From Eledone cirrhosa (taxonomy: Eukaryota): DNA of 64,000 bases. The translations under genes and the position numbers were made by a program. Location of the stretch: positions 174,716,001 to 174,780,000 of the forward strand of contig OZ024742.1 of NCBI GenBank assembly GCA_964016885.1, read 5' to 3'. Positions 17,477 to 58,579 of this stretch are shown one piece after another. Numbering within the stretch: the stretch's first letter is position 1; each line of letters starts with the position of its first letter. The notes beneath the pieces are model-generated. The model was not told the DNA's origin, ran no database searches, and saw only the letters and a program-made list of their open reading frames with translations.

Positions 17477-17509
<33 letters not shown>

Positions 17510-17699
17510 GTTATGTAATAAACAAAATAAGACAATTATTCCATTGACCAGTGGTTTCTTAAAAGCATAAAAATTTGCTTTCAATCATCAGAATGAAAAA
17601 ATCCTGGTGTATTTATTGATATTGGATTCTAAAAACAAAAATGCAATCTATATGAAAGTGAGGCTGGAGAAGGAAGAAGGAAAAATAAAATAAAAACAC

Positions 17700-18208
17700 A
17701 AATGCAAACACACACACACACACACACACAATTATATACATACACACATATATATATATATATATATACATACACACATACATACACACACACATATACA
17801 CATATATAAGTGTATATATATACATACACATACATATACACATACATACATACATAAATATCAACATATGCATACATACACATACATATATACAACCACA
17901 CACATATATATACACATATATATATAGAAATATAAATATATATATATGCATACACATACACATACATAGCCATACACACATACATATACATACATACATA
18001 CATACATACACACAATCATACGTATATACACACGTACATACATACACATACATACACACATATATACATGCATACATATGCATGCACAAAATTAGAAAAA
18101 TACACACACCTCTACATCTTCACATATATACACATATATATATACATATATATATACGTGTGTGTATATATATATACATATATACATGTGTATGTGTGTG
18201 TGTGTATA

Positions 18209-18250
<42 letters not shown>
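17700..18250. repeat. Compound (CA)n/(TA)n/(TACA)n microsatellite
   Basis: Direct reading. Confidence 0.95.
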
Positions 18251-18258
<8 letters not shown>

Positions 18259-18400
18259 GGGAAGTGAGGTTCTATACAAAACAGTGGATATAGAGAAAAG
18301 ATGAAGCTGGAAATAGCACGGGAGATATATTTAAGGGTCTGTTTTGCTTTTTTGATTCGTCAAAGTGACATTATTGAAAAGATAATGTTATTACAAAGAT

Positions 18401-18592
18401 AATTGTTTCTATTTTAGGCAGAAGGCCAGCAATTACCCAGTGTATTACTGGTACTTTATTTTATCGACCCCGTAAGGATGAAAGGCAAAGTTAAGCTTGG
18501 CAGGATTTGAACTCAGATCATAAAGGGACGTAACTCTATGCTTCAAAGCATGGTGTCCGACTCTCTACTGATACTGCCAATCCACCGCCCTA
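18401..18592 (-). mobile_element. SINE family A
   Basis: Reverse complement of 3944-4130; present only in the left arm of the palindrome. Confidence 0.9.
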
Positions 18593-18949
18593 GTGTCATT
18601 AAACAGATAATGTTATTAAAAGAGAGGGACAATTCTTTTTAATTTTTTTTTTTTTTTTTTTATGAAGTATATAAAGTATATGAGAAAACTACCAGTTTCG
18701 ATGTATTAGATCCATCTTGTCAAATTCAGTGAAAAAAGTTAATTAAAAAGAGTTGGTAGGAGTAAAGAAAGGTTTAAAATTAAAATCAAAATCGAATGTT
18801 TGAGTAACATTTCTTCCATCATGCTTCCTGAGAAGTTGGCTGGGATTCAGGAAGCATGATAGAAGAACTTTTACTCAAACATTCGATTTTTTTTTAATTT
18901 TAAACCTTTCTTTACTCCTACCAACTCTTTTTAATTAAGTTTTTTCACT

Positions 18950-18992
18950 GAATTTGACAAGATGGATCCTAATACATCGAAACCGGTAATTT
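18950..18992 (+). ncRNA. Minimal type I hammerhead ribozyme motif, U3-A8 core variant
   Basis: gaat-UUGACAA-gaug(gauccuaaua)cauc-GAAA-ccgg-UA-auuu; mirror copy on the minus strand at ~18687-18729. Confidence 0.68.
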
Positions 18993-19854
18993 TCTCATAT
19001 ACTTTATATATAATAACAATATCTTTTATCTTTTTAATAACACTATCTTTGCAATAATGTCCCTTTGACGAACCAAAGAAGAAAATCAGACCCTTAAATA
19101 TATCTCCCGTGCAATTTCCAACTTTCTCTTTTCTCTCTCATTTCATTTTCATTTCATTTCCCGTCCACTTTTCCCTGCTTGCATATATATACGTGTGTGT
19201 GTGTGTGTATATATACATATATATATACATATATATGTATATACACATGTGCCCATAACTCATGTGGAATGGTAAAGAATGTGTAAAATTGATGAGGACG
19301 ATGGTAATTTAATTACGAAAGTAATACTTGCTAGCATAAGAAAGCTATAAGAAATGCCTCTGGTGTATCCAATACTATAAAATGAAATATATATGATTAT
19401 GTTACATGGACACATACTATAATAAGCTGAAATTACTGAAAACAATACTGATACTTTAACTTAAAACAAACATTTTCTCTCCGAAGAGAATATTATAAGC
19501 AATGAAAGCTGGCACCTGTTGTAATACTATAAATTATACACTCAAATACTGTTGGTTCATTCATAAGTTAATCTTTTAATCAATCTCACTTCAACTAGAA
19601 AGTTTTTCCATATATCTTTGTTCATATCTTGAACTTTGAAAATAAGGTAATATATTATTACTTTATGTACTTTGTGATTAATGGTATCATGCTATCCTAT
19701 ATGCCTTCAGGTTAGATTTTTGGGTCATATAGGTTCTTTACAATCAATGGCTACTCCATGGCTATTTCTTTAAAAAAATATGCCAAAAGTTAGATATTTA
19801 ATAAGCTTATCAATCAATATATATACACCAACACAAATCTTTTTAATTTTTTCA

Positions 19855-20060
19855 CATCATTTCATTTTACGTCCACTTTTCCCTACTTGCAAGGGTGGGA
19901 CGGGAACTGATTCTGGCTTGATTTCTACAGCTGGATGCCCTTCCTAACACCAACCTCATTTACAGTGGGTGCTGGGTGCTTTTTTGCCGTGGCACCTTCA
20001 TGACCACTTTGCAGTGGAATGATAGGGACCCCAGTAATCTCATTTCTACAGCTGAGTAAA
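19855..20060 (-). mobile_element. 5'-truncated copy of the RTE-tailed SINE
   Basis: Matches 2192-2400. Confidence 0.82.
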
Positions 20061-25049: not shown

Positions 25050-25820
25050 GCAGTTTAACAAGTTAGTGTGATTTCAATCCCAAGGTGAGTGTAATTATAT
25101 ATGAATTAGTTTATGTGGAACAAGCAAGTGACATCAGAAGTAACATAACTACTACAAGGATATTCCTGACATCGACAATGGAATGAGAACAATTTATCCC
25201 TGTGATTTCAGTAGGGGTTGGTAAAAGTACCAAATATGAGGATAACAAGCAAGATGAGGGCAACATCATCATCTAATGCATGTTTTACATGTTGGCATGG
25301 GTTGGACAGGTTGATATAGATTGGGACTATATGGCTTGGAGAGACTTCCTATTGATTATGTTTATATTTGGCATGGTTTTTGATGCTTTTCCTAATATTT
25401 TAGAGAATGGACTGGGTGTATTTTATTGAGGTGCCAGCACTACTATTAAATAGTTTGCTGGATACATTTTATTGTAACGTCAACACTTGGGAGGTTATCT
25501 TATGTTTGGTCAAATAGAAGAGTCCTCTCTACTTTATATTGACTATGTTCAATTTCCCACCAATTGACTGAGTATACATGATGCTTTTTATCATTACACC
25601 AACGTTAGAGTGGTTGTGTTATGTTTGGCTAGACTAAAGAGAATTCTTTACCCTATATTGACTCCATGCAACCACTTGTCTGAATAAATCAGTCTAGAAT
25701 ATTTCCCATTTGTTTTACTAGTCTACGAATTCTAGCAATTAACCATTTCTAAAAAAATTCATGCTGCCCTGTTTTCTTGCAACAGTCAAAATATTAACTA
25801 TTTCATAATATTCAATAATA

Positions 25821-27186
25821 ACATTGATGGATCAGGTTGTGGAAGTGGCAGAAAGGATATTACTGCAACTAATTAGAGAAAGGGGGTTTTGTGCCTGGGA
25901 AAAGTACAACGGATGCCCTCTTCTTAGTGAGACAACTACAAGAGAGGTTCTTAGAGAAGAATAAGCCACTATACTTAGCTTTTGTTGACCTAGAGAAGGC
26001 CTTTGATAGGGTACCCCAATCTGTCATCTGGTGGTCCCTAAGGAAACAAGGTATTGAGGAATGACTTGTGAGAACAGTCCAAGCTTTGTACAGAGGTGCT
26101 GTCAGTAAAGTGAGGGTAGGAATGAAGTTTAGTGAGGAATTCCAGATACAAGTAGGAGTACATCAGGGTTCGGTCCTCAGCCCACTCTTGTTCATTATAG
26201 TCCTCCAAGCTATAATAGAGGAGTTTAAAACTGGCTGCCCATGGGAACTTCTCTATGCTGACGATTTGGTTCTTATAGCAGAATCAGTAGAGGAGCTAGA
26301 GAATAAATTCTGGCTATAGAAACAGCAGTTGGAATCAAGAGAACTGAGAGTAAAAATAGCTAAGACAAAAGTGTTGATAAGTAGAAAAGAGGACAAAAAT
26401 CTGATTCCGCCAGGGAATGGCCATGTTCGATATGTAGAAAAGGAACTGCATAAATTCTATAAAATGTACACAATGCAGATATTGGGTACACAAGAGATGT
26501 AGTGGGATAGCAGGCAACTAACAGGTAGGGAAACATACGTATGCAGTAGATGTATAGGGAAATTTGACAGTAGAAGTTGCAGTGATAGACATATTTTTCA
26601 AATGCAGGTAGGATCTATAGAAGTGGTTGATAGCTTCTGGTACCTAGGTGATCAGATTAGCATGGGAGGGGGATGTTCCGAGGCCATAGTATCGAGAATA
26701 AAGACAGGTTGGGAGAAGTTTAGGGAGCTGCTTCCTCTTCTGACAAAGAATTTCTCCCTCCGTACGAAAAGCTGGTTATATGATGACTGTGTGAGATGCG
26801 CGATGCTGTATGGTGGTGAGACATGGGCAGCAACTGCACAGGATATGCGACGGCTGGAGAGAAATGAAGCAAGCATGCTCCATTGGATGTGTAATGTCAA
26901 TGTACGTGAATGACCAAGCATGGATGAGGTGAGAGAGAAACTGTGTAAAAGAGGGATAAGTTGTAGTGTGTGGGAGAGAAGATGGTATGGTCATGTCATG
27001 CGCATGGAGGATGACCGCTGGGTAAAGAAGTGCCAAGAAATGCTGGTAAAAGGAAGACACACTAGAGGAAGACCATGAAAGACATGGCCGGAGGTGGTGA
27101 GAGCGGACCTCAGATCGCTGAAGCTCTCAGAGGTGATGATGAAGGACTGTGACAAGTGGGAAAGTGGACGTAAAATGATGATGATG
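25821..27186 (+). pseudogene. RTE LINE reverse transcriptase, 5'-truncated and frameshifted
   Basis: AFVDLEKAFDRVP, GVHQGSVLSPLLF, LLYADD, FWYLG motifs; stops and frameshifts; 3' UTR mostly deleted; (gat)n tail. Confidence 0.93.
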
Positions 27187-36420: not shown

Positions 36421-36759
36421 ATGATGAAGTGACAGAGTTGTTACAATGTTACATAGAATGCTTTGTGGTGTTTGTTCTCATGCTCGGCACTCTGAATTCA
36501 AATTATTGCTGATTTCAATTGTTCTTACATTCTTTTGAGCTTAATAAAGTATCAAACCAATACTGGCCTTGAATCTTCCTCTACATCTCTCTCCCCCTCC
36601 CCCCCCTCTCACTCTCTCTTTGTAAGAAATTGGCTCTGCAAGTGATTCCCTTGTCTCTAGCAACAGTGAAATGAAGAATACAGTTTATAACACCCAGAAA
36701 AAAGTTATTCATCACCACCACACAAACTTCCCCAACCATTAAGAGATCTATATTAAAAC

Positions 36760-37700
36760 AGGTACACTGTATCCTTGTGCTACTGTGTGTATTAGGGTTT
36801 TCAATAGGTATACTGTATCCTTGTATTGCTGTGTATTAATGTTTAGAATAACTAAACTGCATCCCTTTAATGTTTATCTGGTTTAGAATAGGTACACTGT
36901 ATCCCTGTATTATTGTGTATATCTCGTTTACAATAGGTATAATGTATCCCTATATTATTGTGTATATCTGGTTTACAATAGGTATACTGTATTATTGTGT
37001 ATATCTGGTTTACAATAGGTATACTGTATCGCTGTATTATTGTGTTTATCTGGTTTACAATAGGTATAATGTATCCCTGTATTATTGTGTATATCTCGTT
37101 TACAATAGGTATACTGTATCCCTGTATTATTGTGTATATCTGGTTTACAATAGGTATACTGTATCGCTGTATTATTGTGTTTATCTGGTTTACAATAGGT
37201 ATACTGTATCGCTGTATTATTGTGTATATCTCGTTTACAATAGGTATACTGTATCGCTGTATTATTGTGTATATCTCGTTTACAATAGGTATACTGTATC
37301 GCTGTATTATTGTGTATATCTGGTTTACAATAGGTACACTGTATCCCTGTATTATTGTGTATATCTGGTTTACAATAGGTATAATGTATCCCTGTATTAT
37401 TGTGTATATCTGGTTTACAATAGGTATACTGTATCGCTGTATTATTGTGTATATCTGGTTTACAATAGGTATACTGTATCCCTGTATTATTGTGTATATC
37501 TGGTTTACAATAGGTATACTGTATCCCTGTATTATTGTGTATATCTGGTTTAGAATAGGTACACTGTATCTCTGTATTATTTGTATATCTGGTTTAGAAT
37601 AGGTACACTGTATCTCTGTATTATTTGTATATCTGGTTTAGAATAGGTACACTGTATCCCTGCGTTACTTTGTGCATCAGGGTTTAGAACTGTATCTCTG
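36760..37700. repeat. 45-bp minisatellite, about 20 units
   Basis: Unit aataggtatactgtatccctgtattattgtgtatatctggtttac; 15-aa periodicity in the ORF track; diverged edge units. Confidence 0.97.
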
Positions 37701-38993: not shown

Positions 38994-41821
38994 GCCTCAG
39001 CACTTGACGGGGGCCATTGTCAACAACAGATGGTGGTACTCTCTCAAGAGGGCAGTTAGATTGGACTAGATAGGTGTTAGTAAAGAATTAGTGTTAGATA
39101 GAAATAAGACCGAAAAGGAACTGGTAGATAAAGTAGAAGAGGCACTTAGGAGTGGCAACGTAGCCAGCATGTTAGCAACGAGAACGGCCTTGGACCAGTT
39201 TTCGACGCAAAGCACGAAGGCTGTGTTGTCAGAAGCAAAATACATGTTCTGGGAAATGAGGGAGCCAAAGCTGTTAGCTGGGCCCGAGTGATGGAGGCGA
39301 AAAGTGGCAACAAGTCTACGATTCGGTCTTTGAAGGACCAAGACGGATGCGTGATATGTGAGCCGAAGCAGATGTGCGCGGCCTTTCAGCGGCACTTTGC
39401 TCAACTGTTCGGGCAGGGCGGCGTGCCGGGAGGGGCTATGGATTTTGGTCCATACAGTGACGGCCTACCGCAACTCTTGGAGAGTGAGGCGAAGTTCTGC
39501 GAAAGGCCAATTTCGGCTGCTGAGATAGGGGACGCGCTGAGCCAATGCGGCAAACGCAAATCTCCAGGTCTTGACGGTCTACCCCACGAATTTTACGTAG
39601 CAATGCCGGACTTGTTCTCCAGTCTCCTGGAAGCGGTCTACTGCAACTGGCAGCAGAACGGGAGAATTCCCAGTTCTGTGACCAAGGGCATTGTCACGTT
39701 AGTCAGGAAGGACGAGAATAAAGGGGATGACATAGGCAACTTCCGGCCCATAACTCTGCTAAACACAGAGTTACAGATTTTGGCTAAGGTGTTGGCAAAG
39801 AGAGTGGCGCTTGTCGTCAAAAACCTGGTGGGAGAAGCGCAGACATGTGCGATCCCAACCAGGTCGATACACAACAACCTCCACCTCATGCGATACATCA
39901 TAGAGAGGGTAGGGTGTAAACCCGGCTTCGGTGGGGCCCTGATCAACTTGGATCAGTCGAAGGCTTTCGATAGGGTTGACCATCGTTACCTGGATGTGGT
40001 GCTCTAGGCGGCAGGCTTCAGACCCGTGTTCAGGAGCTGGATTGCTGCAATACACAGCAGCAACATCTGCTCAAGCATCAAGGTGAACGGCTACCTCTCG
40101 GAGCCATTCCATATCACACGATCCATCCGACAGGGATGCCCTCTCTCCCCCCTTCTGTACGTACTGACTCTCGAGCCACTACTGCGGAGGTTGGAGCTAT
40201 TGCAGGGCATCTCTTTGGAACCAGGCCTGCTAAAAGCGACGTAACAGTAATGGTGTTGAGCACCTCACAAATCGGGGAGGTCGGCACCTTACTGAAGGAA
40301 TACGAAAGGTTCACAGGAGCGAAGCTGAACCGGGACAAATCCGTCGGTTTGCAACTCGGAACATGGAGAAGCAAACCGATGCCTTCCGATGGCATCGTTG
40401 GATGCTGGACGGAAGGACCGGTAAAGCTGCATGGGGTCTGGTTTGGTCCGGACCTCCAGGTGGAGAAGAACTGGAACGAGGTGACGGCCAAAGTGTTTGT
40501 GCTTACCTAGAAGTGGGCAGAGTGCAAACTATCCTTGAAAGATCGAGCAGTGGTGGCAAACACTTTTATAGCATCTGTCATCTACTACTGCTTGACCGTC
40601 GTGCCTTGTCCAGCCAAAACGCTCACCAAAATGCAGCGTGTGCTCTTCCAATTCCTTTGGAAGAAGCGGGCTCCTTTGGTGAAAAGATCCATCTGCTGCC
40701 AACACCCTTCAAACGGAGGGCTGGGGATGCCGTGGCTGACGATGCGCAAAAATGAGCTCAGGCTGCGGCACCTCCACGTATACCTCACCGGACAACCTGT
40801 GTGTCCCCGTTCATGAGGCGAGCATTCCCACGACTTGTCTCACAGACCGAGCTGCAGTCCTGGGTCAAGCAAAGACCGAGGAAAATGGGCGACTGGCACA
40901 TCGAATGTGCTCAGGCACTCACAGCCCTCTGGCAGGCAGACCCGGCGATCAGTGGAGACTCCACTTCGTCATTCTATAGAGGTTTGGTCTGCAGCAAGTG
41001 CAACAGTGCGCTTGGAGAAACTCTAGGCATAGAGGAAGACAAACTGGCCAGTCTGTTTGGTAGAACCTTCCGCCCGGGACCGAATGACAACTTCCAAAAG
41101 TCCTTGGACTGGAGCTCTACCAGTTCGAGACAAGCTCTACAGACATGGGCACCCGGGCAGGGACCCTTCGAAAAAGATCTGTCCGAGATGCGTGCGAGAT
41201 GAGGAAACCGTCGCGCACGCATTTGTACACTGCCCGGGCGTTACCGACCTGTGGGGCTATGTAGAACGACTATTGTCACGGGTGGGACCAATCCAGTTGA
41301 CCACCAAGTCCATTGTCATGATCAAACCGCCACCTACCTTCAAAAACGAAGGAGAGGTGGTTTTCCTATGTGTTATGGCTATGGTGAAAGGGGTTATATG
41401 GTGAACGAGGTTAAAAGGGCTGAGGTCAGACAACTTTCTCTCCGGCCAACAACTGATTTTTTTTTTCAAATATCATTTTGGAAGAAGAATCAGGATGGAG
41501 AGAGAGGTGCTATACCCCAGCACATTTTATAAAAGGTGGGTGAATGTGGCAAAGATGGCCTGAGTGGTTGGGCCTTCTCTCTCTATAAGCCTGTAGGTTG
41601 AGGAAAAAGAGGAAGAGAGGAAGGGAGTACTCACTCTTGGTGCTCCTGGAGATGAGGGTTGAACATTTTTTCGGGGTGTGTACTACCCCTGTGTAATGCC
41701 TCCCCCCCTATTGGGGATTTCAATTGTTATTTTATTAATAGTTTCATTTTCATATACCTGTATGTAAACTCCCCCTTTGCATTTGTCCCCTTCTTTTGTG
41801 CCCTTGTGGCTAATAAAAAAA
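38994..41821 (+). mobile_element. L1-superfamily (Tx1-like) LINE, 5'-truncated ORF2 pseudogene
   Basis: KSPGLDGLP.EFY, NFRPITLLN, LDQSKAFDRVDH, IRQGCPLSPLLY, GGLG.P, C-terminal CPRC..EETVAHAFVHC zinc knuckle; YADD region deleted; aataaaaaa end; GC-rich; (ATCT)n on both sides. Confidence 0.92.
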
Positions 41822-43089: not shown

Positions 43090-44530
43090 AGCTCAGAATG
43101 GTCATAAATAATGGAATGACAATTGTTATCTCTATGTATGTGCAACAATCAGGACTAAAGGTAGAAATATAATGACTTTTTCTATGAGAAACTCTTAAGA
43201 CAAACTTCAACAACAGAAATTAGTGGCTTGATTATTTTGGTTGGTGACATCAATGGATGGCTACTTTAAAGTACATGGTGCTATTGATATGGCTTCAGAA
43301 ATGAAGAGGGATCAAGGTCCTAGAATTTAGTGATGCATGTGACCTAACTATTTGCAACGCTAAGGTCAGGAATTAAACCAGTCACTGGATCACCTATCAA
43401 TTAGTCAAACACAAGTGGCATCACACTCATGACAAATGGAGACAGACACAGGGTTATGAATGCTAAGATCGTTCCTGGAGAAGAATGTACCCATCTCCCA
43501 CCATTAGTTAGTTATCAGTGGCATCAGAATTAGAACTAAATGAAATCAGAATCAGGATAAGCTAGGGAAAGAGTGTATGGAAGGTAAAATAACTTTCTAT
43601 TAAATACATGTTTAGAAAAGCTCTTCATGTTGCCTATCATAAGAGGGGAGAGAAGACAGACACATATAACAGGTGGTTGTTTCAATGGAATAGCTAGCCA
43701 ACTTGAAATCACTGAGAGCTGTAACTGTAGCAAGTTATCAACTAGATAAATAGTTATATGATTGTGGAACAGCTCTGTAGACTGAGCCATTTAAGCTCAG
43801 AGATAGGCATGGAAAGAACAATAAAAGAGAAGCTATAAGATAGGTTTACAGAGTGCATGAAGAAGCTGAAAGCAAGAGTGTTGCTAACGTTATGTAACAT
43901 AAGAACCAAAGTGTTTTTCATAGCAAAGCAGTGTGTCAGTGTGAACCAAATGTTGTTGGAAAAAAATCTGTTTAGTATTCTAAACAGATTTTTTTCCAAC
44001 AACATTTGGTTCACATCACTTCCCTAATGCTCAGAAGAAAAAGGTTTGGAAATATTGTTATGAGAGGTTGATGAATTTGGAGAATGAGTGGAAGGTACGA
44101 CTATTTCATCTCCATTTTGACTTAGTAAGGGGACCAATTATTAAAGGTGAGAGTTACAAGTTCAAAGATTGTTAACAGAGTAACAGAAAACGTAGACTTT
44201 GTATGTAGGAGATGCACAGGGTTAGATTGTAGTAAGAGCCCCAGCGTAATAAACTTTCTCCAGCACCAGAAAAATTCCATAGAAATAGTAGTTGATTGCT
44301 TTTGTTACCTAGGTAACCTAATTAGCAGAGATAGAGGTTAATCTAAAAATATGATAGAAAAAGTGCAAAGAACTATTGTCTCTTTTGACAACAAAAACGT
44401 TTGTCTATGAACAAAAGGCTAGCTTTATGATGCCATCACGTGAAATATGACGTTGCATGGAAGTCAAACATGGGTTCTAAAGGTAAAGTATATGCATAGG
44501 CTGGAGAGGAAGGAAGTGAGCATGCTTTAG
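43090..44530 (+). mobile_element. Highly decayed RTE LINE (EN and RT remnants)
   Basis: Colinear similarity to 47440-47930, 48320-48510 and 51560-51940 (FVCRRC...IEIVVDCFCYLG). Confidence 0.72.
43940..44015. repeat. Perfect 36-bp inverted repeat with 4-nt loop
   Basis: tgtgaaccaaatgttgttggaaaaaaatctgtttag-tatt-ctaaacagatttttttccaacaacatttggttcaca. Confidence 0.97.
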
Positions 44531-46099: not shown

Positions 46100-46215
46100 A
46101 TAAAAATATGAAATCGAAAATGCAACTGGAATCTTATTTTTAAAAAAATATATATATTTATTTGGTTCCTTTACCAGTTTCGCAGTTCTTCTGCTTTTCA
46201 AAAGTAGAGTTGAGA
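46100..46215 (-). mobile_element. Single-arm copy of fold-back element 2 with hammerhead motif
   Basis: Closely matches 53255-53364; the minus strand reads cuu-UUGAAAA-gcag(aagaa)cugc-GAAA-cugg-UA-aag. Confidence 0.85.
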
Positions 46216-46492: not shown

Positions 46493-49400
46493 TTCCAGGT
46501 ATCCCTCTATTTCCCAATTGCAAATGTTCCGCTCACACTATTATTGCTGTATTTATCATTTCACTAGCTTCCACAACATGTTTATTTTTTTACCCTCGTT
46601 TTCTTTTCCCTTGTCTCTCTAAGAAGTCATTTACTCTCTTCCTCTCTCTTACACTATTATTAGTGTTGTTGTATTTATCATTTCGCTGTCTCTACGAAGT
46701 CATCTACTCCCTTCAAAATCATAACATTAACATTTCTCCTTGTCTAATATAGGTATTCCTATCGGTTTATTTTGCCATGAGATGCTATAGGCCATGATGG
46801 CTACCTATCTCACAATTTCCCTCCCGCCCGCTCCAACACCACCATAGCCTATTCAACCAATCAAACCTCAGCATGCCCCCCCCCCATTACCAACCCCAAC
46901 AAACTCTGCCATTACTACTACTACCTACCTCTCTCCTCCCCTGTCCCAGCCCCAACACACCCTGCCATTATTACCACCACCACTGTCCTTCTAGCCCTGA
47001 ATTCTTCTACCGTTATGTATGGATGAGCTGAGAATAAATGGAGCAACCCTGAATTAGTAAATGAAAATGAATATGAATCCGCAAGCTACCAAGCACCCAT
47101 GTGAAGCTTCAATTCAGAGACAGGAAGCATACACACACCCCTGCAAAAATCAACCCTTTCCACACGAAAGTTGACAAATGCCCAAAACTCCGAGTTGGTA
47201 CCATTAATGTAAGCACAATGAAAGAAAGGGCAGGAGAAGTCGTAGAGATGCTAGAGTGAAAGGAAATTGACGTATGCTGTGTGCAAGAGACTAGATGGAG
47301 AGGAGTGTCTGCTAGATTCCTTGTAGGAAAAAGTCAGTGCTACAAAGTTTTCTGGGTGGGAAATGATGATGGGATGGGTGGTGTAGGTATCCTACTAGCT
47401 GACAAGTGGCTAGATAAGGTAATCTCAGTGAACAGGGTGAATGCAAGAATCATTAAACTCAGACTAGTCCTGAATAAAACAATTACCACAATAATATCAG
47501 CTTACGCACCCCAATTGGGGTTGCCAGACGAACTTAAGGATAGGTTTTATGAGTCCCTAATGCACACTACTGCTCTAACAAACGACAATGACTTCCTAAT
47601 CATTGCAGGAGATGTTAATGGACATGTGGGTAAACACCGAGACGGCTTCTATAGAGTCCATGGAGGCCATGGGATTGGCACAAGAAATGAAGAAGGATTC
47701 AGGCTTCTAGAATACTGCGATGCCAATGACATGTCGATATGTAACACAAACTTCAAAAACCCGACAACCACATGATCACCTATAGATCAGGGGAGCATTC
47801 TAGTCAGATAGATTTTATCCTCATCAGAGGACATGACAGATTTACGGTCGTAAACACAAAAGCCTTCCCTAGTGAGGAATGTACCTCCCAACATAGCTTA
47901 GTTGTCAGCGACCTCACGGTCAGAACTAGACAAACCTGGAAACAGTAGCCAACCTGGAGAAGAAAGATCTGAAAGCTGAAAGACCCCTCAGCCAGTAACA
48001 GATTTAAAGATATTTTACTCCATGCCTATGACAGTAAAGGAGAACAGATAGAGACATTCATTGTAGAAGAGCACTGGGAGTTCCTAAAAAAACCTACTAG
48101 AGGTGACGGATGAGATCTGTGGCTGGAGTAAGACCTCAAGCAGGAGGAGAGTTACTTGGTGGTGGAACAATAAGGTAGATGAGGCAGTTAAGGCCAAGAG
48201 ACAGGCATGGAAAGAATGGAAGAACAGGGGAAGCAGGGTACATTACATAGAGACCAGGAGGGAAGCTAGGCGACAAGAATACTTAGCTAGGAGGGAAGCA
48301 GAAGATAGAAAATTCAAGCAGGTTTTGCAACGTGAGGACCAGAAACAGGAGGTGTTCAAGATTGTGAGGCAGTGTGTCAGAGAGAATTGTGATGTCATTG
48401 GAGAGAAGTGTATCCGGAATGATAAAGGTGAGCTTGCCCTCACAAGTGCTGAGAAGAAAGATGCGTGGAAGAGCCATTATGAAGATTACTAAATGAGGAA
48501 AATGCATGGGAAGAAGAGATGCTACACCAAGTAGACCCTATAGACAGGGCTAGCAGTACAAGTCAGCAGCGGCGTAGTAAGTAAGGCCATCAAAGATATG
48601 AAGACCGGGAAGGCAACCGGTCCATCGGGTATAGCTGCCGAGATGCTGAAGGCATCTGGGTTAGTATGTCACACTATAACCACACATATTGTTAACCAGG
48701 TAATACTAGAAGGTGTCATACCAAAGGATTGGTGCAGTAGCATCATTGTCAACTGCTACAAAGGTAAAGATAATGCACTAGATAGAGGAAACTATAGAGG
48801 TATAAAGCTGATGGACCAGGTCATGAAAGTATCAAAAAGAGATATAGCACAGTTGATTAGGGACCAGGTGAAACTAGATGAGATGTAATTTGGTTTTTTG
48901 CCAGGAAGATATAAATATATATATAAATATAGAAAACTAGGAGTAGATGAATGGCTTGTGAAAGCTGTACAAGCCATGTATAGGGGAGCAGTCAGCAAAT
49001 TTAGGATTAGAAATAAGTATAGTGAGGATTTTAGCGTACAGGTCATGTCCACCAGGGCTCTATTCTTAGCCCTCTCCTGTTCATCATAGTCCTGCAGGCA
49101 ATAATGGAGGAGTTTAAAACCATATGCCCATGCAAAATCCTGAATCTATGGTAGAACTAGAGAAGAAATTCCAAACTTGGATGCAAGGACTAGAAAGAAA
49201 GGGTCTCAAAGTCAACCTGACAAAGAGTAAGGTCCTTGTAAGTAGACGAGAAAACAGAACCCAGATCCCCTCAGGAAAATGGCCTTGCTCAGTATGTAGG
49301 AAAGGTGTAGTTAGGAACTCCATTCACTGCTCCAAATGCAAACAATGGTTACACAAGAGATGTAGCGGGATCTCAGGAAGCTTAACTAAGAATGTAGGCT

Positions 49401-50340
49401 TCACATGTAGCAGCTGTGCTGGGACAGCAAGCAGCAAACAGCCACAGGAAACAAGTACCACCAAACTCTGGGAGGGCTCCGTAGAATCAGTCAACAGCTT
49501 CTGCTACCTAGGTGACTGAATTAGCAGCGGAGGTGGTGTTCGGAAAGTACAATAACTAGGGTAAGAACGGGATGGAAGAAGTTCAGGGAGCTACTCCCAC
49601 TGCTAGCTGCAAAAGGCTTTTCCCTCAAAATAAAGGCAGACTGTATGATGCATGTATACAAATGGCAATGTTACATGGTAGTGAGACCTGGGCGCTGACT
49701 GTGGAAGACTTACGTAGATTAGAAAGAAATGAAGCCTGCATGCTCCGATGGATGAGTAGTAGTAATACACGCGAACGGCAAAGCAAAAATGAATTGAGAG
49801 AGAGACTGGGCATAAGAGGAATCAAATGCTGTGTGCAGGAGAGGCGGTTGCGTTGGTATGGACATGTGGTGCATATGAAGGATGACCGCGGAATGGGGAG
49901 ACCCAAGAAGACCTGTGATGAGATGATAAAAGCCGACCTTACCCAATTACACCTCTCAAATGTGATGACACATGACCCTGACCTCTGGCGTCACGCAGTA
50001 ATACAGAAGACCCGCCCCCCATGGGTACAAGCTGAAGCTGAAGCATATAGACGATATGCCCTCACACCCTCCCACTGCAAAGTAGTCATGGAGGTGCTGC
50101 GGCAAAAAAGCACCCAGCCCACACTGTAAAGGGAACATGTAGGCGCCACCGAAAAAAAGCACCCAGCACTCACTATAAATGAGGTTGGTGTTAGGAAGGG
50201 CATCCAGCTGTAGAAATCATGCCAGAATCAGTTCCCGTATGAGCAAGACAAGGTCAGCCGACCGGACACTGCCCACAACAGGACAACCCGTCTAACCCAT
50301 GCTAGCGTGGAAGAACGGACGTAAAACGGTGATGATGATG
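46493..50340 (+). mobile_element. Near full-length RTE LINE (APE endonuclease plus RT), decayed
   Basis: VGTINV...VQETRW, SAYAPQ, AGDVNGHVG, GPSGI, NYRGIKL, SFCYLG, RLRWYGHV; stops, frameshifts and internal deletions; (gat)n tail; 5' boundary uncertain. Confidence 0.93.
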
Positions 50341-50525
50341 ATATATATATACATGTATATACATATATATATACATATATATACATATATATACACACAT
50401 CTACATACATATATGTATATACATATATATATACGTACATATATGTATATACATGTATATATATATGAATATACATATGTATATATGTATATATATGTAT
50501 ATATATGAATATACATGTATATATA

Positions 50526-50788
50526 ATATATTTATTTACATGTATATACATATATATACATCTACATATTTATGCATGCATTTACATGTATGTGTATATA
50601 ACTTTTCCATCTACATGGCATTGTTCAACTCAAGTCTATAGTAGAAAACTCTTGTCCAACATTACAGAATCAGAAATATAGTTTTTGTGAAACAAACTCC
50701 TTAACCACATGGCCATGCCTTTGCTTATCCCCACAGCCGTGATACATATATCTATCTATCTATCTATCTATCTATCTCACTTATATAT
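50526..50788. repeat. Right arm of a long inverted repeat (partner 46259-46492)
   Basis: See left arm. Confidence 0.9.
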
Positions 50789-50873
50789 ACTACTTTTCCC
50801 ATCTTGACGTTATAGTCGCATATATGTTATAGAATGCCGTTAGCTTCTTGCTAAAACAATCTCTATACCTCTC

Positions 50874-50907
<34 letters not shown>

Positions 50908-50910
<3 letters not shown>

Positions 50911-52770
50911 TTGATCTAGATGAAATGCAGTTCGGGTTTGTGTCAGGAAAAAGTACCACAGACGCTCTTTTCATTGTACGACAACTACAGGAGAAGTACC
51001 TAGCTAAAAGTAAACCCCTATACTTAGCTTTCGTCGACTTGGAGAAAGCCTTCGACAGAGTCCCCCGTTCCATTATCTGGTGGTCTCTTAGAAAACTAGG
51101 TGTTGACGAATGGCTTGTGAGAGCTATACAAGCCATGTATAAAGAAACAGTCAGTAAGGTTAGAATTAACAACGAATATAGTGAAGAGTTTAGCGTAAAA
51201 GTTGGTGTCCATCAGGGCTCTGTACTTAGCCCCCTACTATTTATTATTGCCCTTCAGGCTATAACAGAGGAGTTCAAGACCGGCTGCCCATGGGAACTCC
51301 TATACGCAGATGATCTAATGCTCATAGCTGAATCAATGACCGAACTAGAGAAGAAATTCCAAACATGGAAGCACGGCCTAGAATCAAAAGGCCTTAAAAT
51401 TAACCTGGCTAAGACAAAAGTTCTAGTTTGTAGGAAAGAAAATATGGCGGCAGTCCCATCTGGGAAATGGCCATGCTCAGTGTGTAGGAAAGGCGTAGGT
51501 AGAAACTCCATTTTATGTCCCAAATGCAAAGTATGGGTGCATAAAAGATGTAGTGGGATCACAGGTAAGCTAACGAAGAACATAGATTTTACATGTGGCC
51601 GGTGCTCTGGTGCAATAAGTAGCAGCAAGTGCCCACAAAATACTAGCTCCTTCAACTGCGCAGAGGGTTCTATAGAAATAGTGGACAGCTTCCGTTACCT
51701 GGGTGACAAAATCAGCAGTGGGGGAGGGTGCTCTGAAAGTACAGTAGCTAGAGTCAGAACTGGATGGAAAAAGTTCAGAGAGCTTATACCACTATTAGCC
51801 GCTAGAGGGTTCTCCCTAAAAATGAAAGGCAGGTTATACGATGCCTGCATACGAACAGCAATGCTGCATGGCAGTGAGACCTGGGCATTGTGTGCAGAGG
51901 ATATACGCAGACTAGAGAGGAACGAAGCTTGCATGCTCCGCTGGATGTGCAATAGTAATATACGTGAACGGCAAAGCATAAACGAACTAAGGAAAAAATT
52001 AGAAATAAGAGGGATCAGATGTTGTTTACTCGAGAGAAGGCTACGTTGGTACGGTCACGTGATGCGCATGAAAGACGACAGCTGTATAACAACGTGCAGG
52101 GCAATAAAGATAGACGGTAGCCACGGAGTAGGCAGACCCAGAAAAACATGGGACGAGCTGATAAATTCCGACCTCACACGCTTACACCTCTCCAAGACAA
52201 TGTCACTGGACCGAGACCTTTGGCGGTACTCAGTAATAGAGAAGACCCGCCTTACCTAAATACAAAGTAAAAACCTACTACAGTCAGTAGGCATCTCTAT
52301 CAAAACACCCCCCCGTCCCACCACCTCCACCCCATCCACACCGCCCCTTTCAATGTACAGTTATGTTGGTCCCACAACATCCAGGCCGAAACAAATGAGA
52401 TCGTGTAGGTGTCACGACAAAAAAACACACAGTCCACGCTGTAAATGTGGCCGTGTAGGCAACACGGTAAAAACCTCCCAGCCCCACACTGTAAATGTGG
52501 TTGGTGTTAGGAAGGGCATCCAGCTGTAGAAAACCCGCCAGACAGTCCACGCTGTAATGTGGCCGTGTAGGCAACACGGTAAAAACCTCCCAGCCCCACA
52601 CTGTAAATGTGGTTGGTGTTAGGAAGGGCATCCAACTGTAGAAAACCCACCAGACAGTCCTATGCGAGCAAGACAACCACTCTTGCCTCAAGTGTGAAAA
52701 CCCCCGTCCAAACCCATGCAAGCGTGGAACACGGACGCTAAACCTGATGATGATGATGATGATGATGATA
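50908..52770 (+). mobile_element. Young 5'-truncated RTE LINE with a ~114-bp tandem duplication in the 3' UTR
   Basis: Starts abruptly after (TA)n, intact ORF, UTR block ~52430-52545 repeated to ~52660, (gat)n tail. Confidence 0.96.
50925..52259 (+). CDS. RTE LINE reverse transcriptase, C-terminal 444 aa (no endonuclease; the start Met is internal), with inserted C4HC3 finger
   Basis: QFGF, AFVDLEKAFDRVP, GVHQGSVLSPLLF, LLYADD, FRYLG, RLRWYGHVMR, GRPRKTW; no stops. Confidence 0.93.
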   Translation: MQFGFVSGKSTTDALFIVRQLQEKYLAKSKPLYLAFVDLEKAFDRVPRSIIWWSLRKLGVDEWLVRAIQAMYKETVSKVRINNEYSEEFSVKVGVHQGSVLSPLLFIIALQAITEEFKTGCPWELLYADDLMLIAESMTELEKKFQTWKHGLESKGLKINLAKTKVLVCRKENMAAVPSGKWPCSVCRKGVGRNSILCPKCKVWVHKRCSGITGKLTKNIDFTCGRCSGAISSSKCPQNTSSFNCAEGSIEIVDSFRYLGDKISSGGGCSESTVARVRTGWKKFRELIPLLAARGFSLKMKGRLYDACIRTAMLHGSETWALCAEDIRRLERNEACMLRWMCNSNIRERQSINELRKKLEIRGIRCCLLERRLRWYGHVMRMKDDSCITTCRAIKIDGSHGVGRPRKTWDELINSDLTRLHLSKTMSLDRDLWRYSVIEKTRLT

Positions 52771-52777
52771 TATAAGC

Positions 52778-52898
52778 TCAGACAGTCCTATACAAGCAGG
52801 ACAACCAATCTTGCCTCAAGTGGGAAAACTCCCGTACAAACCCATGCAAGCGTGGAAGATGGACGTTAAACGATGATGATGATGATGATGATGATGAT
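52778..52898 (+). mobile_element. Extra very short RTE 3'-tail insertion
   Basis: Repeats 52651-52770 with divergence; has its own (gat)n tail. Confidence 0.85.
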
Positions 52899-52899
52899 A

Positions 52900-53213
52900 A
52901 GCTCTTTTTACAAAACGTTTTTTTCAATTTCAGGTAGACGCGCACCATCATCCAATTTTCTAAAAAAACAAGTCATACACAAAACGCCAGCACCAAAAGT
53001 TGTGCAAGAGATGTCAACATGAATGGACCTATTATTTCTATCTAAAGACATTTTTTCCAATTCTATCCCGCCCATCCCCCTTAATCTATTTTATTTCTCA
53101 TTATTTCTTCTGATGAAGGACTAGCGTCCGAAACATAAGCGTTAACCTAATATATACCTTCCCTATACTGTACCGATTGTGTTGTTATTTCTGTTTACCT
53201 TTTACATACATAT

Positions 53214-53215
<2 letters not shown>
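52900..53215 (+). mobile_element. Probable Penelope-like 3' fragment with hammerhead-like motif
   Basis: CUGAUGA-a-ggac(uagc)gucc-GAAAC at 53110-53134; lies between (gat)n and (ta)n; no coding evidence. Confidence 0.5.
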
Positions 53216-53241
<26 letters not shown>

Positions 53242-53248
<7 letters not shown>

Positions 53249-53550
53249 AAAAAGAGATGAAATCGAAAATGCAACTGAAGTCTTATTTTTTTTTTAAATA
53301 TATATATTTATTTGGTTCCGTTACCGGTTTCGCAGTTCTTCTGCTTTTCAAAAGGTGAGTTGAGTCTCAACTCACCTTTTGAAAAGCAGAAGAACTGCGA
53401 AACCGGTAAAGGAACCAAATAAATATATATATTTTTAAAAAAAATAAGACTTCAGTTGCATTTTCGATTTCATCTCTTTTTCTTTATACTTTCACTCGTG
53501 TAGGACACCTCGGTTATTTTTCATTTTGTAAAAAAAAACTCACTTTCTAA
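53242..53550. mobile_element. Fold-back palindromic element 2 (123-bp arms, 1-nt spacer) with 3' extension
   Basis: 53242-53364 and 53366-53488 are reverse complements with 3 mismatches; the extension ends ctcactttctaa then (ta)n. Confidence 0.92.
53375..53412 (+). ncRNA. Minimal type I hammerhead ribozyme motif, U3-A8 core variant
   Basis: ccuu-UUGAAAA-gcag(aagaa)cugc-GAAA-ccgg-UA-aagg; stems I and II fully Watson-Crick paired; predicted cleavage after A53408. Confidence 0.75.
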
Positions 53551-53559
53551 TATATATAT

Positions 53560-54530
53560 TGCGCAGAGGGTTCTATAGAAATAGTGGACAGCTTCCGTTA
53601 CCTGGGCGATAAAATCAGCAAGTGGGGGAGGGTGCTCTGAAAGTACTGTAGCTAGAGTCAGAACTGGTTGGAAAAAGTTCAGAGAGCTTATACCACTATT
53701 AGCTGCTAAAGGGTTCTCCCTAAAAATGAAAGGCAGGTTGTACGATGCCTGCATACGAACAGCAATGTTGCATGGCAGTGAGACCTGGGCATTGTGTGCA
53801 GAGGATATACGCAGACTAGAGAGGAACGAAGCTTGCATGCTCCGCTGGATGTGTAACAGTAATATACGTGAACGGCAAAGCATAAACGAACTAAGGAAAA
53901 AATTAGAGATAAGAGGGATCAGATGTTGTTTACTCGAGAGAAGGCTACGTTGGTATGGACACGTGATGCGCATGAAAGTCGATAGCTGTATAACAAAGTG
54001 CAGGGCAATAAAGATAGACGGTAGCCACAGAATAGGCAGACCTAGAAAAATCTGGGACGAGCTGATAAACTCCGACCTCACACACTTACACCTCTCCAAG
54101 ACAATGTCACTGGACCGAGACCTTTGGCGGTACTCAGTAACAGAGAAGACCCGCCTTGCCAGTAGGCATCTCTAACAAAATACACCCCGTCCCGCCACCA
54201 CCCCCACCCATCCACACCACCTCGTCCTATGTAAAGTTATGTTGGTGCCGCGCCATCCAGGCCGAAACAAATGAGATCGTGTAGGTGTCACGACAAAAAA
54301 ACACACAGTCCACGCTGTAATGTGGCCGTGTAGGCAACACGGTAAAAACCTCCCAGACCCACACTGTAAATGTGGTTGGTGTTAGGAAGGGCATCCAACT
54401 GTAGAAAACCTGCCAGACAGTCCTATGCGAGCAAGACAATCACTCTTGCCTCAAGTGGGACTACCCCCATCCAAACCCATGCAAGCGTGGAACACGGACG
54501 TTAAACGTTGATGATGATGATGATGATGAT
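53560..54530 (+). mobile_element. Young 5'-truncated RTE LINE
   Basis: Nearly identical to 51658-52770, with a +1 frameshift near 53620; (ta)n on both sides. Confidence 0.95.
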
Positions 54531-55984: not shown

Positions 55985-57309
55985 ATGTAGGAAATTTAAG
56001 TCTTATGAAATATTTATTTCAGAGATTACAGAGTAATCTGAATGATTTGGTTTGGGCTTACATTAAACTTCACCTATGAAGCTCAATAATACACACATAA
56101 CAAGTATCTTATCAGTGTAATGAAATCACAGACTACAACCATAACTGATATCATCATTTTACATTCGCTTTCCATGCTGGCATGAGTTGGTCATCCCTTT
56201 AGACTAACTTCGACAGATCTAGTTATAGAAGAGCAATCATTAATTTACAGCTTAAGATCTCCAGCTTGTCAAGTGAGGAAGTTTGCATCTGATGCCGATT
56301 TCACCAGATTTTGCCACAGGAGAAAGTCTCTCTGCAGGTTGCATCCCAGATTAGATTTTTTGTATCTGAGAACAGAAACGTTGTGATATCTGTGTGGACT
56401 TTCACGATTTCCTGAATCTAACTACACCATCTCCACATATAATATATTATAAAACAATAAATGAATACACCAAATGCTGCTGAAACAAATGTCTTGAAGG
56501 GAAATAATGTTTGCTATTTGTTTTATTTCTACAAATGCTGATTGTTTTCTTCAAATCCTTATATTTTTTACATCTGTAGATTTGTGTACCAAAGGATTTT
56601 CTTCATTAAATTGTTTTTTCTTTAATTTTTTTAAAATTTAAATTGTTATTCTATACAAGTAATACAATCCTAGTTTATTGTCTCTTCTCTTTTAAGAGTT
56701 GCATGAAAAATGAATTCTTTTGTATTATATTTCAGTAAGTTATTCACTGTGGAAAACAGCTACATGGGGAAATATGAAAAGAACTGTGTAGGGGGGATAT
56801 CAATACAACAAAAAATAGATGTTCATTTCAATATTTTATATTTGTATCATTGATTTACTCTCTGTAATGTCAGATAAAAGTCAAAAAGATAAGCCAAGTA
56901 AAATCATAATTCTAAATGGAGAATAACTTTATATTTTCATGCGAGAGTTTGACATAATAATATGTTGCCAGCTATCAGATTAACTCCTAACATTGTATTT
57001 TCTCTTTCTATGTTGGCATTGGTTGGATGAGTCTTCCATATTGTCTTTATCAGATAGAATAATATGACATTCACTTTTCTAGGCTTGTCTGAAGTTTTAA
57101 ATTAGTTGCCATCATTCAGAACAATTGATGTTTGTCTCTTATAAAGATATATTTAGCAGGGATGTTTTCCATGTTTATTTTACTCTTTTGCTGCTTTCAG
57201 TCATCAGACTGCTCCCATGATGGGGCATCGTCTTGAAGAGATTTAGTCAATTATATTGATCCCAGTACAAGATCTCTTTTTATTGAATCATTAAGTCATG
57301 AAGTATTTT

Positions 57310-58023
57310 GTTCTAATAGGAAGGGAGAACTTTGCATGTAGAGGATACACAGGAGTAATTGAGAGGAAGAGTGCCAATGTTATAAATCTTCTCTAGTCAC
57401 AAGAAGGATCCATAGACGTGGTTGATAGCTTCTGCTATCTAGCTGACTTATTTAGCAATAATGGAGGTTGTGCTGAGAGTATAATAGCTAGAATAAGTAT
57501 AGAATGGAAGAAGTTTAGAGAACTACTCCCACTGTTGACATCAAAAAGTTTCTCCCTATATACAAAAGGATGGCAGTATGATGCCTGTGTGTGGAATGCA
57601 ATGCTGCATGATAGTCAAACATGGGCTGTGACTGCAGGGGACATGCATAGACAGGAGAGAAATGAAGCCACGATGCTTCATTGGAAAGGCAGAGCTTGGA
57701 CAAGCTGAAGGAGAAGCTGGATTTAAGGGGAATCCAAGATGGTGTACAAGAGAGAAGAATACGTTGGTATGGACATGTGATGCACATAGACAATAATTAT
57801 TGGGTGAAAAATACCAGGAGATCCCAGTGGAAGGAAGCTGCAGTACAGTATAACCAAGAAAAACCTGGGCAGAGGTTGTGAGAACTGACCTCAAATCACT
57901 AAGCCTGGCAGAGGAGATGACAAACGAATGTGACAAGTGAAGAGATGCTGTGCTGAGAAGGACCCATATAACCCATGCAAGCGTGGAAAAACACATGTAA
58001 AGATGATGATGATGATGATGATG
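57310..58023 (+). mobile_element. Decayed RTE RT/3' fragment
   Basis: VDSFCYL...WKKFRELLPLL...ERRIRWYGHVM; (gat)n tail. Confidence 0.88.
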
Positions 58024-58579
58024 TCTAACCAATGTATGCAGGTGAAGCCGAGGTTCATCGATGATGATACCTAATATTTAACCCCCTGTTGAAGTGCTTT
58101 AAAGAACTCAAAGGATTATTCTGTAATAAATATGAGATTTGTTATACTTTGGGCAGCTCATGCTAACGCCAAATACACATGCACCAGTTCAGTTTCATTA
58201 TTAGTCAATGGGAAATTGTTTATACTGACAGCAGTATTTTATGGGTACTTTATTTTATCAACCCCAAAAGGATAAAAGGAAAAAATTACCTTGACTGGAT
58301 ATGAATTCAGAATGTAAAGGCTCATAACTAAATGCCACAAAGCAGTTTGTCCATCATTCTTATGATTCTTCTAATCTATTGCCCTTAGTATTGCTCAATA
58401 ATAAAATACAGTAGTAAGAAACTCTTAGAAGGGCTGGACAGCAGAAGGTCTTCAGAGAAGAAACCCCATCATGTAAGTCTATCGGCACTTAACATCTGTA
58501 AAATATTTAACACTACTGTTAGCCAATATTTTAATTCCAACATCCAAATGTTTATTTCTATTATATTTATAGTTTATTA

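Follow-up and report, generated by a model that had tools for sequence, protein, structure and literature searches.

The window analysed here is a stretch of 64,000 nucleotides of Eledone cirrhosa DNA (contig OZ024742.1). At 18292-19136 it contains an inverted repeat in which each arm carries a hammerhead-type motif. The parts of this structure and its borders are:

18216-18250, no strand: (TA)n microsatellite next to the left end, into which the element was likely inserted (from the sequence)
18251-18291, minus strand: 41 nt that extend the left arm at its 3′ end, likely an optional 'tail' of a Penelope-like element (PLE) (from the arm alignment)
18292-18831, minus strand: left arm, 3′ end outward (arm alignment)
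~18399-18600, minus strand: high-copy SINE-like repeat of ~200 nt, in the left arm only (BLAST, six-copy alignment)
18686-18727, minus strand, core at 18723: left-arm hammerhead-type motif (descriptor and alignment)
18832-18846, no strand: unpaired 15-nt spacer at the head-to-head (5′-5′) junction (arm alignment)
18847-19136, plus strand: right arm, 3′ end outward (arm alignment)
18950-18992, plus strand: right-arm type I hammerhead-type motif (descriptor and alignment)
19137-19184, no strand: piece of another high-copy repeat at the right end, obscuring the original junction (window matches, depth)

The original prediction had placed two arms around a 15-nt spacer at these positions, and the alignment agrees with it. 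The inner arms (18668-18831 vs. 18847-19010) match in 156 of 165 alignment columns and the outer arms (18292-18400 vs. 19028-19136) in 97 of 109, an overall identity of 89-95% and a divergence of 5-11%. Both hammerhead motifs read outward, and the arms are therefore joined 5′ to 5′. About 49 nt at 18619-18667 in the left arm are missing from the right. The SINE-like repeat is likewise confined to the left arm, as had been proposed; BLAST found matches to it at 12 further sites in the window, six copies were aligned, and its depth in contigs of a related organism (described below) reaches ~1.9e7. Its flanks show a candidate target duplication of 7 nt, AGATAAT, at 18397-18403 and 18605-18611. 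From A- and B-box-like motifs we would read it, by eye rather than by any tool, as a putative tRNA-derived SINE; ARAGORN found no intact tRNA in 18399-18600.

The flanks of the element as a whole are (TA)n, where a TA target-site duplication would be invisible. The 41-nt extension has no counterpart in the right arm and no other copy in the 64-kb window; the concept of a 'tail', applied to it here, comes from descriptions of PLEs (PMC8557442; PMC3846280). The insertion at 19137 could have removed a right-hand counterpart; the repeat piece there has window matches at 19857-19891 and 2193-2226 and a depth of ~1.1e5 in the related organism's contigs. Since the right-hand junction has been overwritten, the asymmetry of the tail is uncertain for this copy.

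The right-arm motif has the letters GAAT-TTGACAA-GATG(10 nt)CATC-GAAA-CCGG-TA-ATTT, its core starting at 18954. It had been spelled out in this form and assigned to a U3-A8 hammerhead type in the original prediction, correctly, and the left arm carries the same on the minus strand. In the right arm stem I is GAAU/AUUU, the core is U3-U-G-A-C-A8-A, and stem II is GAUG/CAUC with G10.1-C11.1, followed by GAAA. Stem III is the palindrome ACCGGU, and H17 is A18988, the predicted cleavage site. In the left arm, stem I is GAAU/GUUU, the core UUGACAA and stem II GAUG/CAUC, with H17 again A; stem III is ACUGGU, the palindrome being broken by a single change. Both arms contain the type I core (C3/U3-UGAN-G8/A8-A, GAAA and U16.1-H17, with 3 and 8 paired) in the form UUGACAA...GAAA...UA. 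According to PMC3088659, the U3-A8 pair occurs as a covariation in nature and is active in vitro. The right arm and its tail run ~150-190 nt outward from the predicted cleavage site, and the sister family described below is similar, so that in both families the predicted hammerhead sits in a terminal repeat near its 3′ end, as in PLEs. An ATG inside stem II opens just 31 low-complexity codons (18962-19057), with no other sign of coding; the ORF of an Anolis PLE is reported to begin likewise in stem II (PMC11167929).

A strict type I hammerhead descriptor, composed after the motif had been seen, was applied to the 64-kb window and found five loci: 18954 (plus), 18723 (minus), 53379 (plus), 46201 (minus) and 17591 (minus). 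By comparison, 150 local dinucleotide shuffles gave a mean of 0.13 loci (maximum 2), with 0.11 carrying U3-A8 and 0.013 a palindromic stem III. Exact core matches had both stems in one of 43 cases in viral contigs and in none of 14 in prokaryotic contigs. The hammerhead pattern is well above chance, as judged by a descriptor that is post hoc. None of the 126 Rfam matches with E up to 5 was a hammerhead, all being noise such as miRNA models matched through microsatellites; the scan also missed the canonical-core motif at 17591, and it is therefore insensitive here.

That motif (17500-17700, minus strand, core at 17591) is hammerhead-like, with a 7-bp stem I, a 9-bp stem II and a stem III of the form ACCA-C-UGGU, which resembles that of the octopus element Hydra-1_Obim. 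It ends at (TA)n and has no second copy in the window. A minimal-hammerhead-like motif, CUGAUGA-A-GGAC/GUCC-GAAAC, with a stem I of only 2 bp, lies at 53060-53215 on the plus strand (core ~53111), ~100 nt ahead of a (TA)n tract on which the palindrome at 53.3 kb also borders. Elsewhere in the window, a 76-nt near-perfect palindrome (97%) at 43940-44015 has no hammerhead motif, and a tandem array at 36753-37662 (45-bp unit, ~20.6 copies, 90% matches) is open in several frames. Broken LINE remnants occupy 47200-54200, 25800-27100, 39000-41600 and 57300-58100; RVT_1 pieces are found at 25873-26316, and a 449-aa frame at 50910-52259 resembles RVT_1 and PHD clusters, the nearest cluster being labelled Mollusca (two records), in keeping with a molluscan or other invertebrate host.

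The sister family is represented by a palindrome at 53242-53488, with arms 97% identical, (TA)n on both sides, clean junctions and, on just one arm, an extension of ~60 nt. A single change breaks stem I in its left arm (53305-53345), and only the right arm passes the descriptor. A solo arm of this family at 46.06-46.25 kb (motif at 46201, minus) has a longer 5′ end and lies between microsatellites, its 3′ end at (TA)n. Since the family occurs also as a solo arm, one that extends further 5′, the mobile unit was likely the arm, and the inversion was likely made at insertion. Aligned over whole arms, the two families show no significant likeness, 75 of 500 shuffles scoring equally well; their tails show weak homology, with a score reached by 51 of 2000 shuffles. 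The same core is kept in both, and stems I and II are paired by different bases, as the original prediction had observed in claiming covariation across families, although the basis of that covariation is two families in one window. Over eight copies from ~4 lineages, 62 of 64 stem I and II cells pair, with several pair types, three of the eight having been picked for having stems. The extra base typical of minimal PLE hammerheads between positions 9 and 10.1 is absent in all four U3-A8 copies in the window.

Stems I and II, of 4 bp each, can be drawn for the 18292-19136 copy with either a 2-bp or a dimeric 6-bp stem III, yet this is not its favoured fold. Folding energy does not reach the hammerhead in the isolated motif (z +1.1 to +1.2, no better than shuffles), and in a single arm the predicted pairing probability is ~0.04 for stem II and ~0.0001 for stem I. 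The double-hammerhead dimer of this family is predicted at -10.1 kcal/mol vs. -21.8 for the best alternative, which counts against a PLE end. In the sister family the same dimer lies at most 1.4 kcal/mol from the best dimer fold, and at a metagenomic locus, L103, it is the predicted best fold. For a transcript running through the palindrome the prediction is a hairpin of -226 kcal/mol in which the whole motif is paired with its antisense copy and the first stem II pair has a probability of ~1e-21. The pattern is real, but with no Rfam match, folding like that of shuffles and an unfavoured dimer the 18292-19136 copy is a poor folder; it is probably inert.

Contig sets from two DNA-type runs on one sample of a related organism (8% of words shared, compared at 80% likeness) cover every part of the element many times, although the SINE dominates the depth tables, and the element is dispersed in those contigs. 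The outer ~130 nt occur in 16,000-43,000 contigs and the interior mostly in fewer than 3,000, depth not being the same as copy number. Of the right-arm bins the one with the core is deepest, at 2429/2866 contigs vs. 7-337 in the three upstream bins; mirrored left-arm bins upstream of the core reach 770-1660 contigs, and once these are added the peak at the core is only modest. Among the 40 of 73 variants listed, all those within 18954-18992 fall in loop II. In each run two contigs, 18672-18845 and 18680-18838, cover the greater part of the inner left arm and enter the spacer, and none of the contigs listed spans the whole of 18292-19136. No RNA run carrying the element was found among the sequencing runs listed.

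A family-specific pattern gave no match in viral or metagenome contigs. A generic core scan of metagenomes gave at least 120 loci; three of the 120 listed passed the stem filter, about as many as the null rate of 1/57 predicts. The weight of these loci lies instead in a stem I of 7-8 bp in L051 and L103 and in flanks shared by L051, L103 and L136, the last of which failed the stem II filter. In all three a U3-A8/GAAACYGGUC motif is followed by telomere-like repeats of (TCACCC)n/ACACCC type. Reverse-complement telomeric repeats beside hammerheads are described as a mark of endonuclease-less PLEs (PMC8557442), so this motif variant is likely present in PLE repeats elsewhere too, and by their anatomy the three loci are likely Athena/Terminon-type repeats. 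The motif of L051 lies within 700-800 of its contig; L103 (700-950) has a second, 5′-truncated copy ~150 nt upstream. A candidate instance of the same hammerhead-like variant, with 4-bp stems, lies at 680-730 in the AT-rich contig L058, directly upstream of an ORF with no Pfam match. No PLE RT or GIY-YIG domain was found in five ORFs of the short contigs L051, L058 and L103.

We consider it probable that the 18292-19136 structure is an old PLE insertion reduced to two head-to-head 3′ terminal repeats, each with a predicted type I U3-A8 hammerhead. Outside the known LINE remnants, a scan of 138 window ORFs (of 193 candidates) revealed neither a PLE RT nor a GIY-YIG nuclease, so that membership is judged by anatomy, not by protein; on that footing a PLE origin is likely. 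Several observations argue for it. The motif is far above chance and its stems are rare at chance cores. Two dissimilar families keep the core while pairing their stems with different bases. Besides its palindrome the sister family has a solo arm; its 3′ ends lie at (TA)n, and an extension is present on one side. The stretch is dispersed in a related organism, where the right-arm core bin is the deepest; L051, L103 and L136 show the same variant and then telomere-like repeats; the double-hammerhead dimer is near-best in the sister family and best in L103; and two more canonical-core hammerhead-like motifs, at 17591 (minus) and ~53110 (plus), adjoin (TA)n.

Published features of PLEs match as well. 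Inverted 5′-truncated copies, a one-sided tail of 30-40 bp and (TA)n targets are described in PMC8557442, and head-to-head junctions in PMC3846280. Here we find a head-to-head inverted 5′-truncated pair, a solo copy in the sister family, a (TA)n or AT-rich insertion site, and one-sided extensions of 41 nt at 18251-18291, where the far junction is overwritten, and of ~60 nt in the sister family. Of the minimal PLE hammerhead consensus (PMC4209133), G10.1-C11.1 and the palindromic 15.2-16.2/loop 3 are present; the extra unpaired base between 9 and 10.1 is lacking, which speaks against a PLE end, and it is also absent from some published PLE hammerheads, e.g., Chlamys-2_cBra (PMC8557442). U3-A8 hammerheads have been reported in Schistosoma PLEs, with ~1,300 matches and a low, dimer-dependent activity (Cervera & de la Pena 2014, PMC4209133), and the same report describes opposite-strand PLE hammerhead pairs 100-700 bp apart; the spacing here is ~230 bp from core to core. 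The Cercyon PLEs of Schistosoma mansoni share with the present motif the type I form, U3-A8, G10.1-C11.1, a short stem I and a palindromic stem III (PMC4209133). Unlike Cercyon, the present motif has a stem II of 4 bp, no extra base after 9, a CG loop in stem III (ACCGGU) and no ORF attached; in Fig. S3 of that paper the two U3-A8 rows from Schistosoma show the extra base but lack loop 3.

In their head-to-head inverted ends of ~200-300 bp, a possible 30-40 bp tail on one end and a (TA)n target in which a duplication would be hidden, the arms resemble the pseudo-LTRs of endonuclease-bearing PLEs, namely Adineta vaga Penelope (PMC3846280) and Naiad, Hydra and Neptune elements (PMC8557442). Full pseudo-LTR structures differ in that only terminal fragments are present here, and the clade is not assignable. 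The resemblance to Athena/Terminon elements lies in the motif of L051, L103 and L136, whereas in the window the copies lack telomere-like repeats and stop at (TA)n. A comparison with cephalopod PLEs had been suggested. An octopus Hydra-clade PLE prefers (TA)n (PMC8557442), as here; however, in the hammerhead of Hydra-1_Obim the core is canonical, C3-G8, and stem III is ACCA-A-UGGU (PMC8557442), vs. U3-A8 and ACCGGU, and the 3′ ends of Naiad_Obim and Naiad_Ovul in the supplement of that paper are unlike the 18292-19136 arms by eye. The idea that the motif is the missing ribozyme of Naiad elements was rejected: GAAACCGGTA gave no matches in the supplement, where line breaks could hide one, and the ends are dissimilar. 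A 12-nt match of an arm to a coding region there was judged to be chance.

The newness implied by the original prediction did not hold. The U3-A8 core and opposite-strand pairs were reported in 2014 (PMC4209133), and inverted ends and tails in PMC8557442 and PMC3846280; each feature, (TA)n targets and head-to-head ends included, has been published separately. The combination of U3-A8, no extra base, a 4-bp stem II and ACCGGU is absent from the published tables compared, and Lunse et al. or Arkhipova et al. 2017 may list it. No cephalopod U3-A8 family was found in the literature compared; the available part of PMC7151607 is silent on a U3-A8/ACCGGU variant, and that of PMC13282606 catalogues Penelope families in Octopus vulgaris without mention of ribozymes. 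Insertion by an Anolis PLE in vitro is reported not to require hammerhead cleavage (PMC11167929).

Insertion would have begun when the protein of an autonomous PLE, none of which was seen here, nicked the (TA)n tract and reverse-transcribed the element RNA from its 3′ end. Copying would have stopped after ~300 nt, and a second, inverted 5′-truncated copy would have been attached at the 5′ end, so that both 3′ ends faced outward and one of them bore the tail. The arms have diverged by 5-11% and a SINE has entered the left one, presumably later. In an active parent the motif may have worked as a dimer, two copies pairing through ACCGGU into stem III and being cut after A17. The fold-back is probably a by-product of insertion, not a replicating unit. 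The original prediction had seen in it a lineage of ribozyme-bearing fold-back retroelements; two distinct families of likely Penelope-like origin bear out part of this, and the fold-back as the replicating form is countered by the solo arm at 46.06-46.25 kb and by the burial of the motif in the hairpin.

Replication as a palindrome is nevertheless what one alternative would require, namely a dedicated non-autonomous fold-back or retrozyme-like element whose ribozyme frees unit-length or circular RNA. Two unrelated families in one window do share both a short palindromic form and the ribozyme variant, two contigs per run cross from the inner left arm into the spacer, and non-coding hammerhead retroelements derived from PLE ends have been reported (preprint 10.64898/2026.07.22.740005). 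Animal non-LTR retrozymes (PMC7229834; preprint 10.64898/2026.07.22.740005) are also similar in their ~300-nt non-coding AT-rich unit and in a type I hammerhead whose stem II has 4 bp and whose stem III is a short palindrome. As reported, though, they are direct tandem repeats with a hammerhead per unit, in which stem I is usually 6 bp long and loop-loop contacts are made, whereas the copies here are inverted or solo, with a 4-bp stem I for which no extension was found. The solo arm with its longer 5′ end and the predicted read-through hairpin, in which stem II would hardly form, also tell against such an element, and we regard it as unlikely. Still less likely is a MITE or fold-back DNA transposon, mobilised by a transposase, with inverted repeats that contain or have captured hammerhead-like sequence. 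The structure is nearly all inverted repeat and lies in (TA)n, its outer ~130 nt are the deepest, as terminal repeats would be, and MITEs are annotated in octopus (PMC13282606). However, 5′-truncated retrotransposition predicts an outward depth gradient equally, two unrelated families would have to converge on one RNA motif, and a solo arm exists. One-sided extensions of 41 and ~60 nt also leave neither family with symmetric terminal inverted repeats reaching both ends, a point that is weaker for this copy, whose right end is overwritten.

That a real palindrome carries a hammerhead likeness by chance in AT-rich DNA is very improbable. The missing Rfam match, the weak stems, the lack of a folding signal and the post hoc descriptor speak for it, but the palindromic form arises 0.013 times per shuffle vs. 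two independent families observed, and the same variant recurs in unrelated metagenomic repeats. Fold-back sequencing artefacts exist, and no contig listed spans the whole stretch; a sequencing or assembly chimera is nonetheless hardly credible, since 5-11% of sites differ between the arms and two insertions, the ~49 nt and a SINE with a candidate target duplication, set them further apart. The claim that the palindrome is old and genuine is upheld by the same differences.

A bolder possibility, which we think doubtful, goes beyond the old PLE insertion that we prefer: several undescribed non-autonomous PLE-derived families, of a probably cephalopod lineage, may all have fixed a U3-A8/ACCGGU-dimer hammerhead and be copied preferentially as head-to-head palindromes, the antisense arm silencing the ribozyme and making long dsRNA. 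If true, such fixed U3-A8 hammerheads would escape the usual CUGANGA searches.

Existing knowledge of PLEs and hammerheads is unchanged by the present locus. It likely adds molluscan examples to a published ribozyme variant and is of modest importance. Hammerhead censuses that use a CUGANGA core, such as that described in PMC8557442, miss U3-A8 families, and the two sequence-distinct families in this window provide a ready set with which to test U3-A8 dimer cleavage and to find the autonomous partner.
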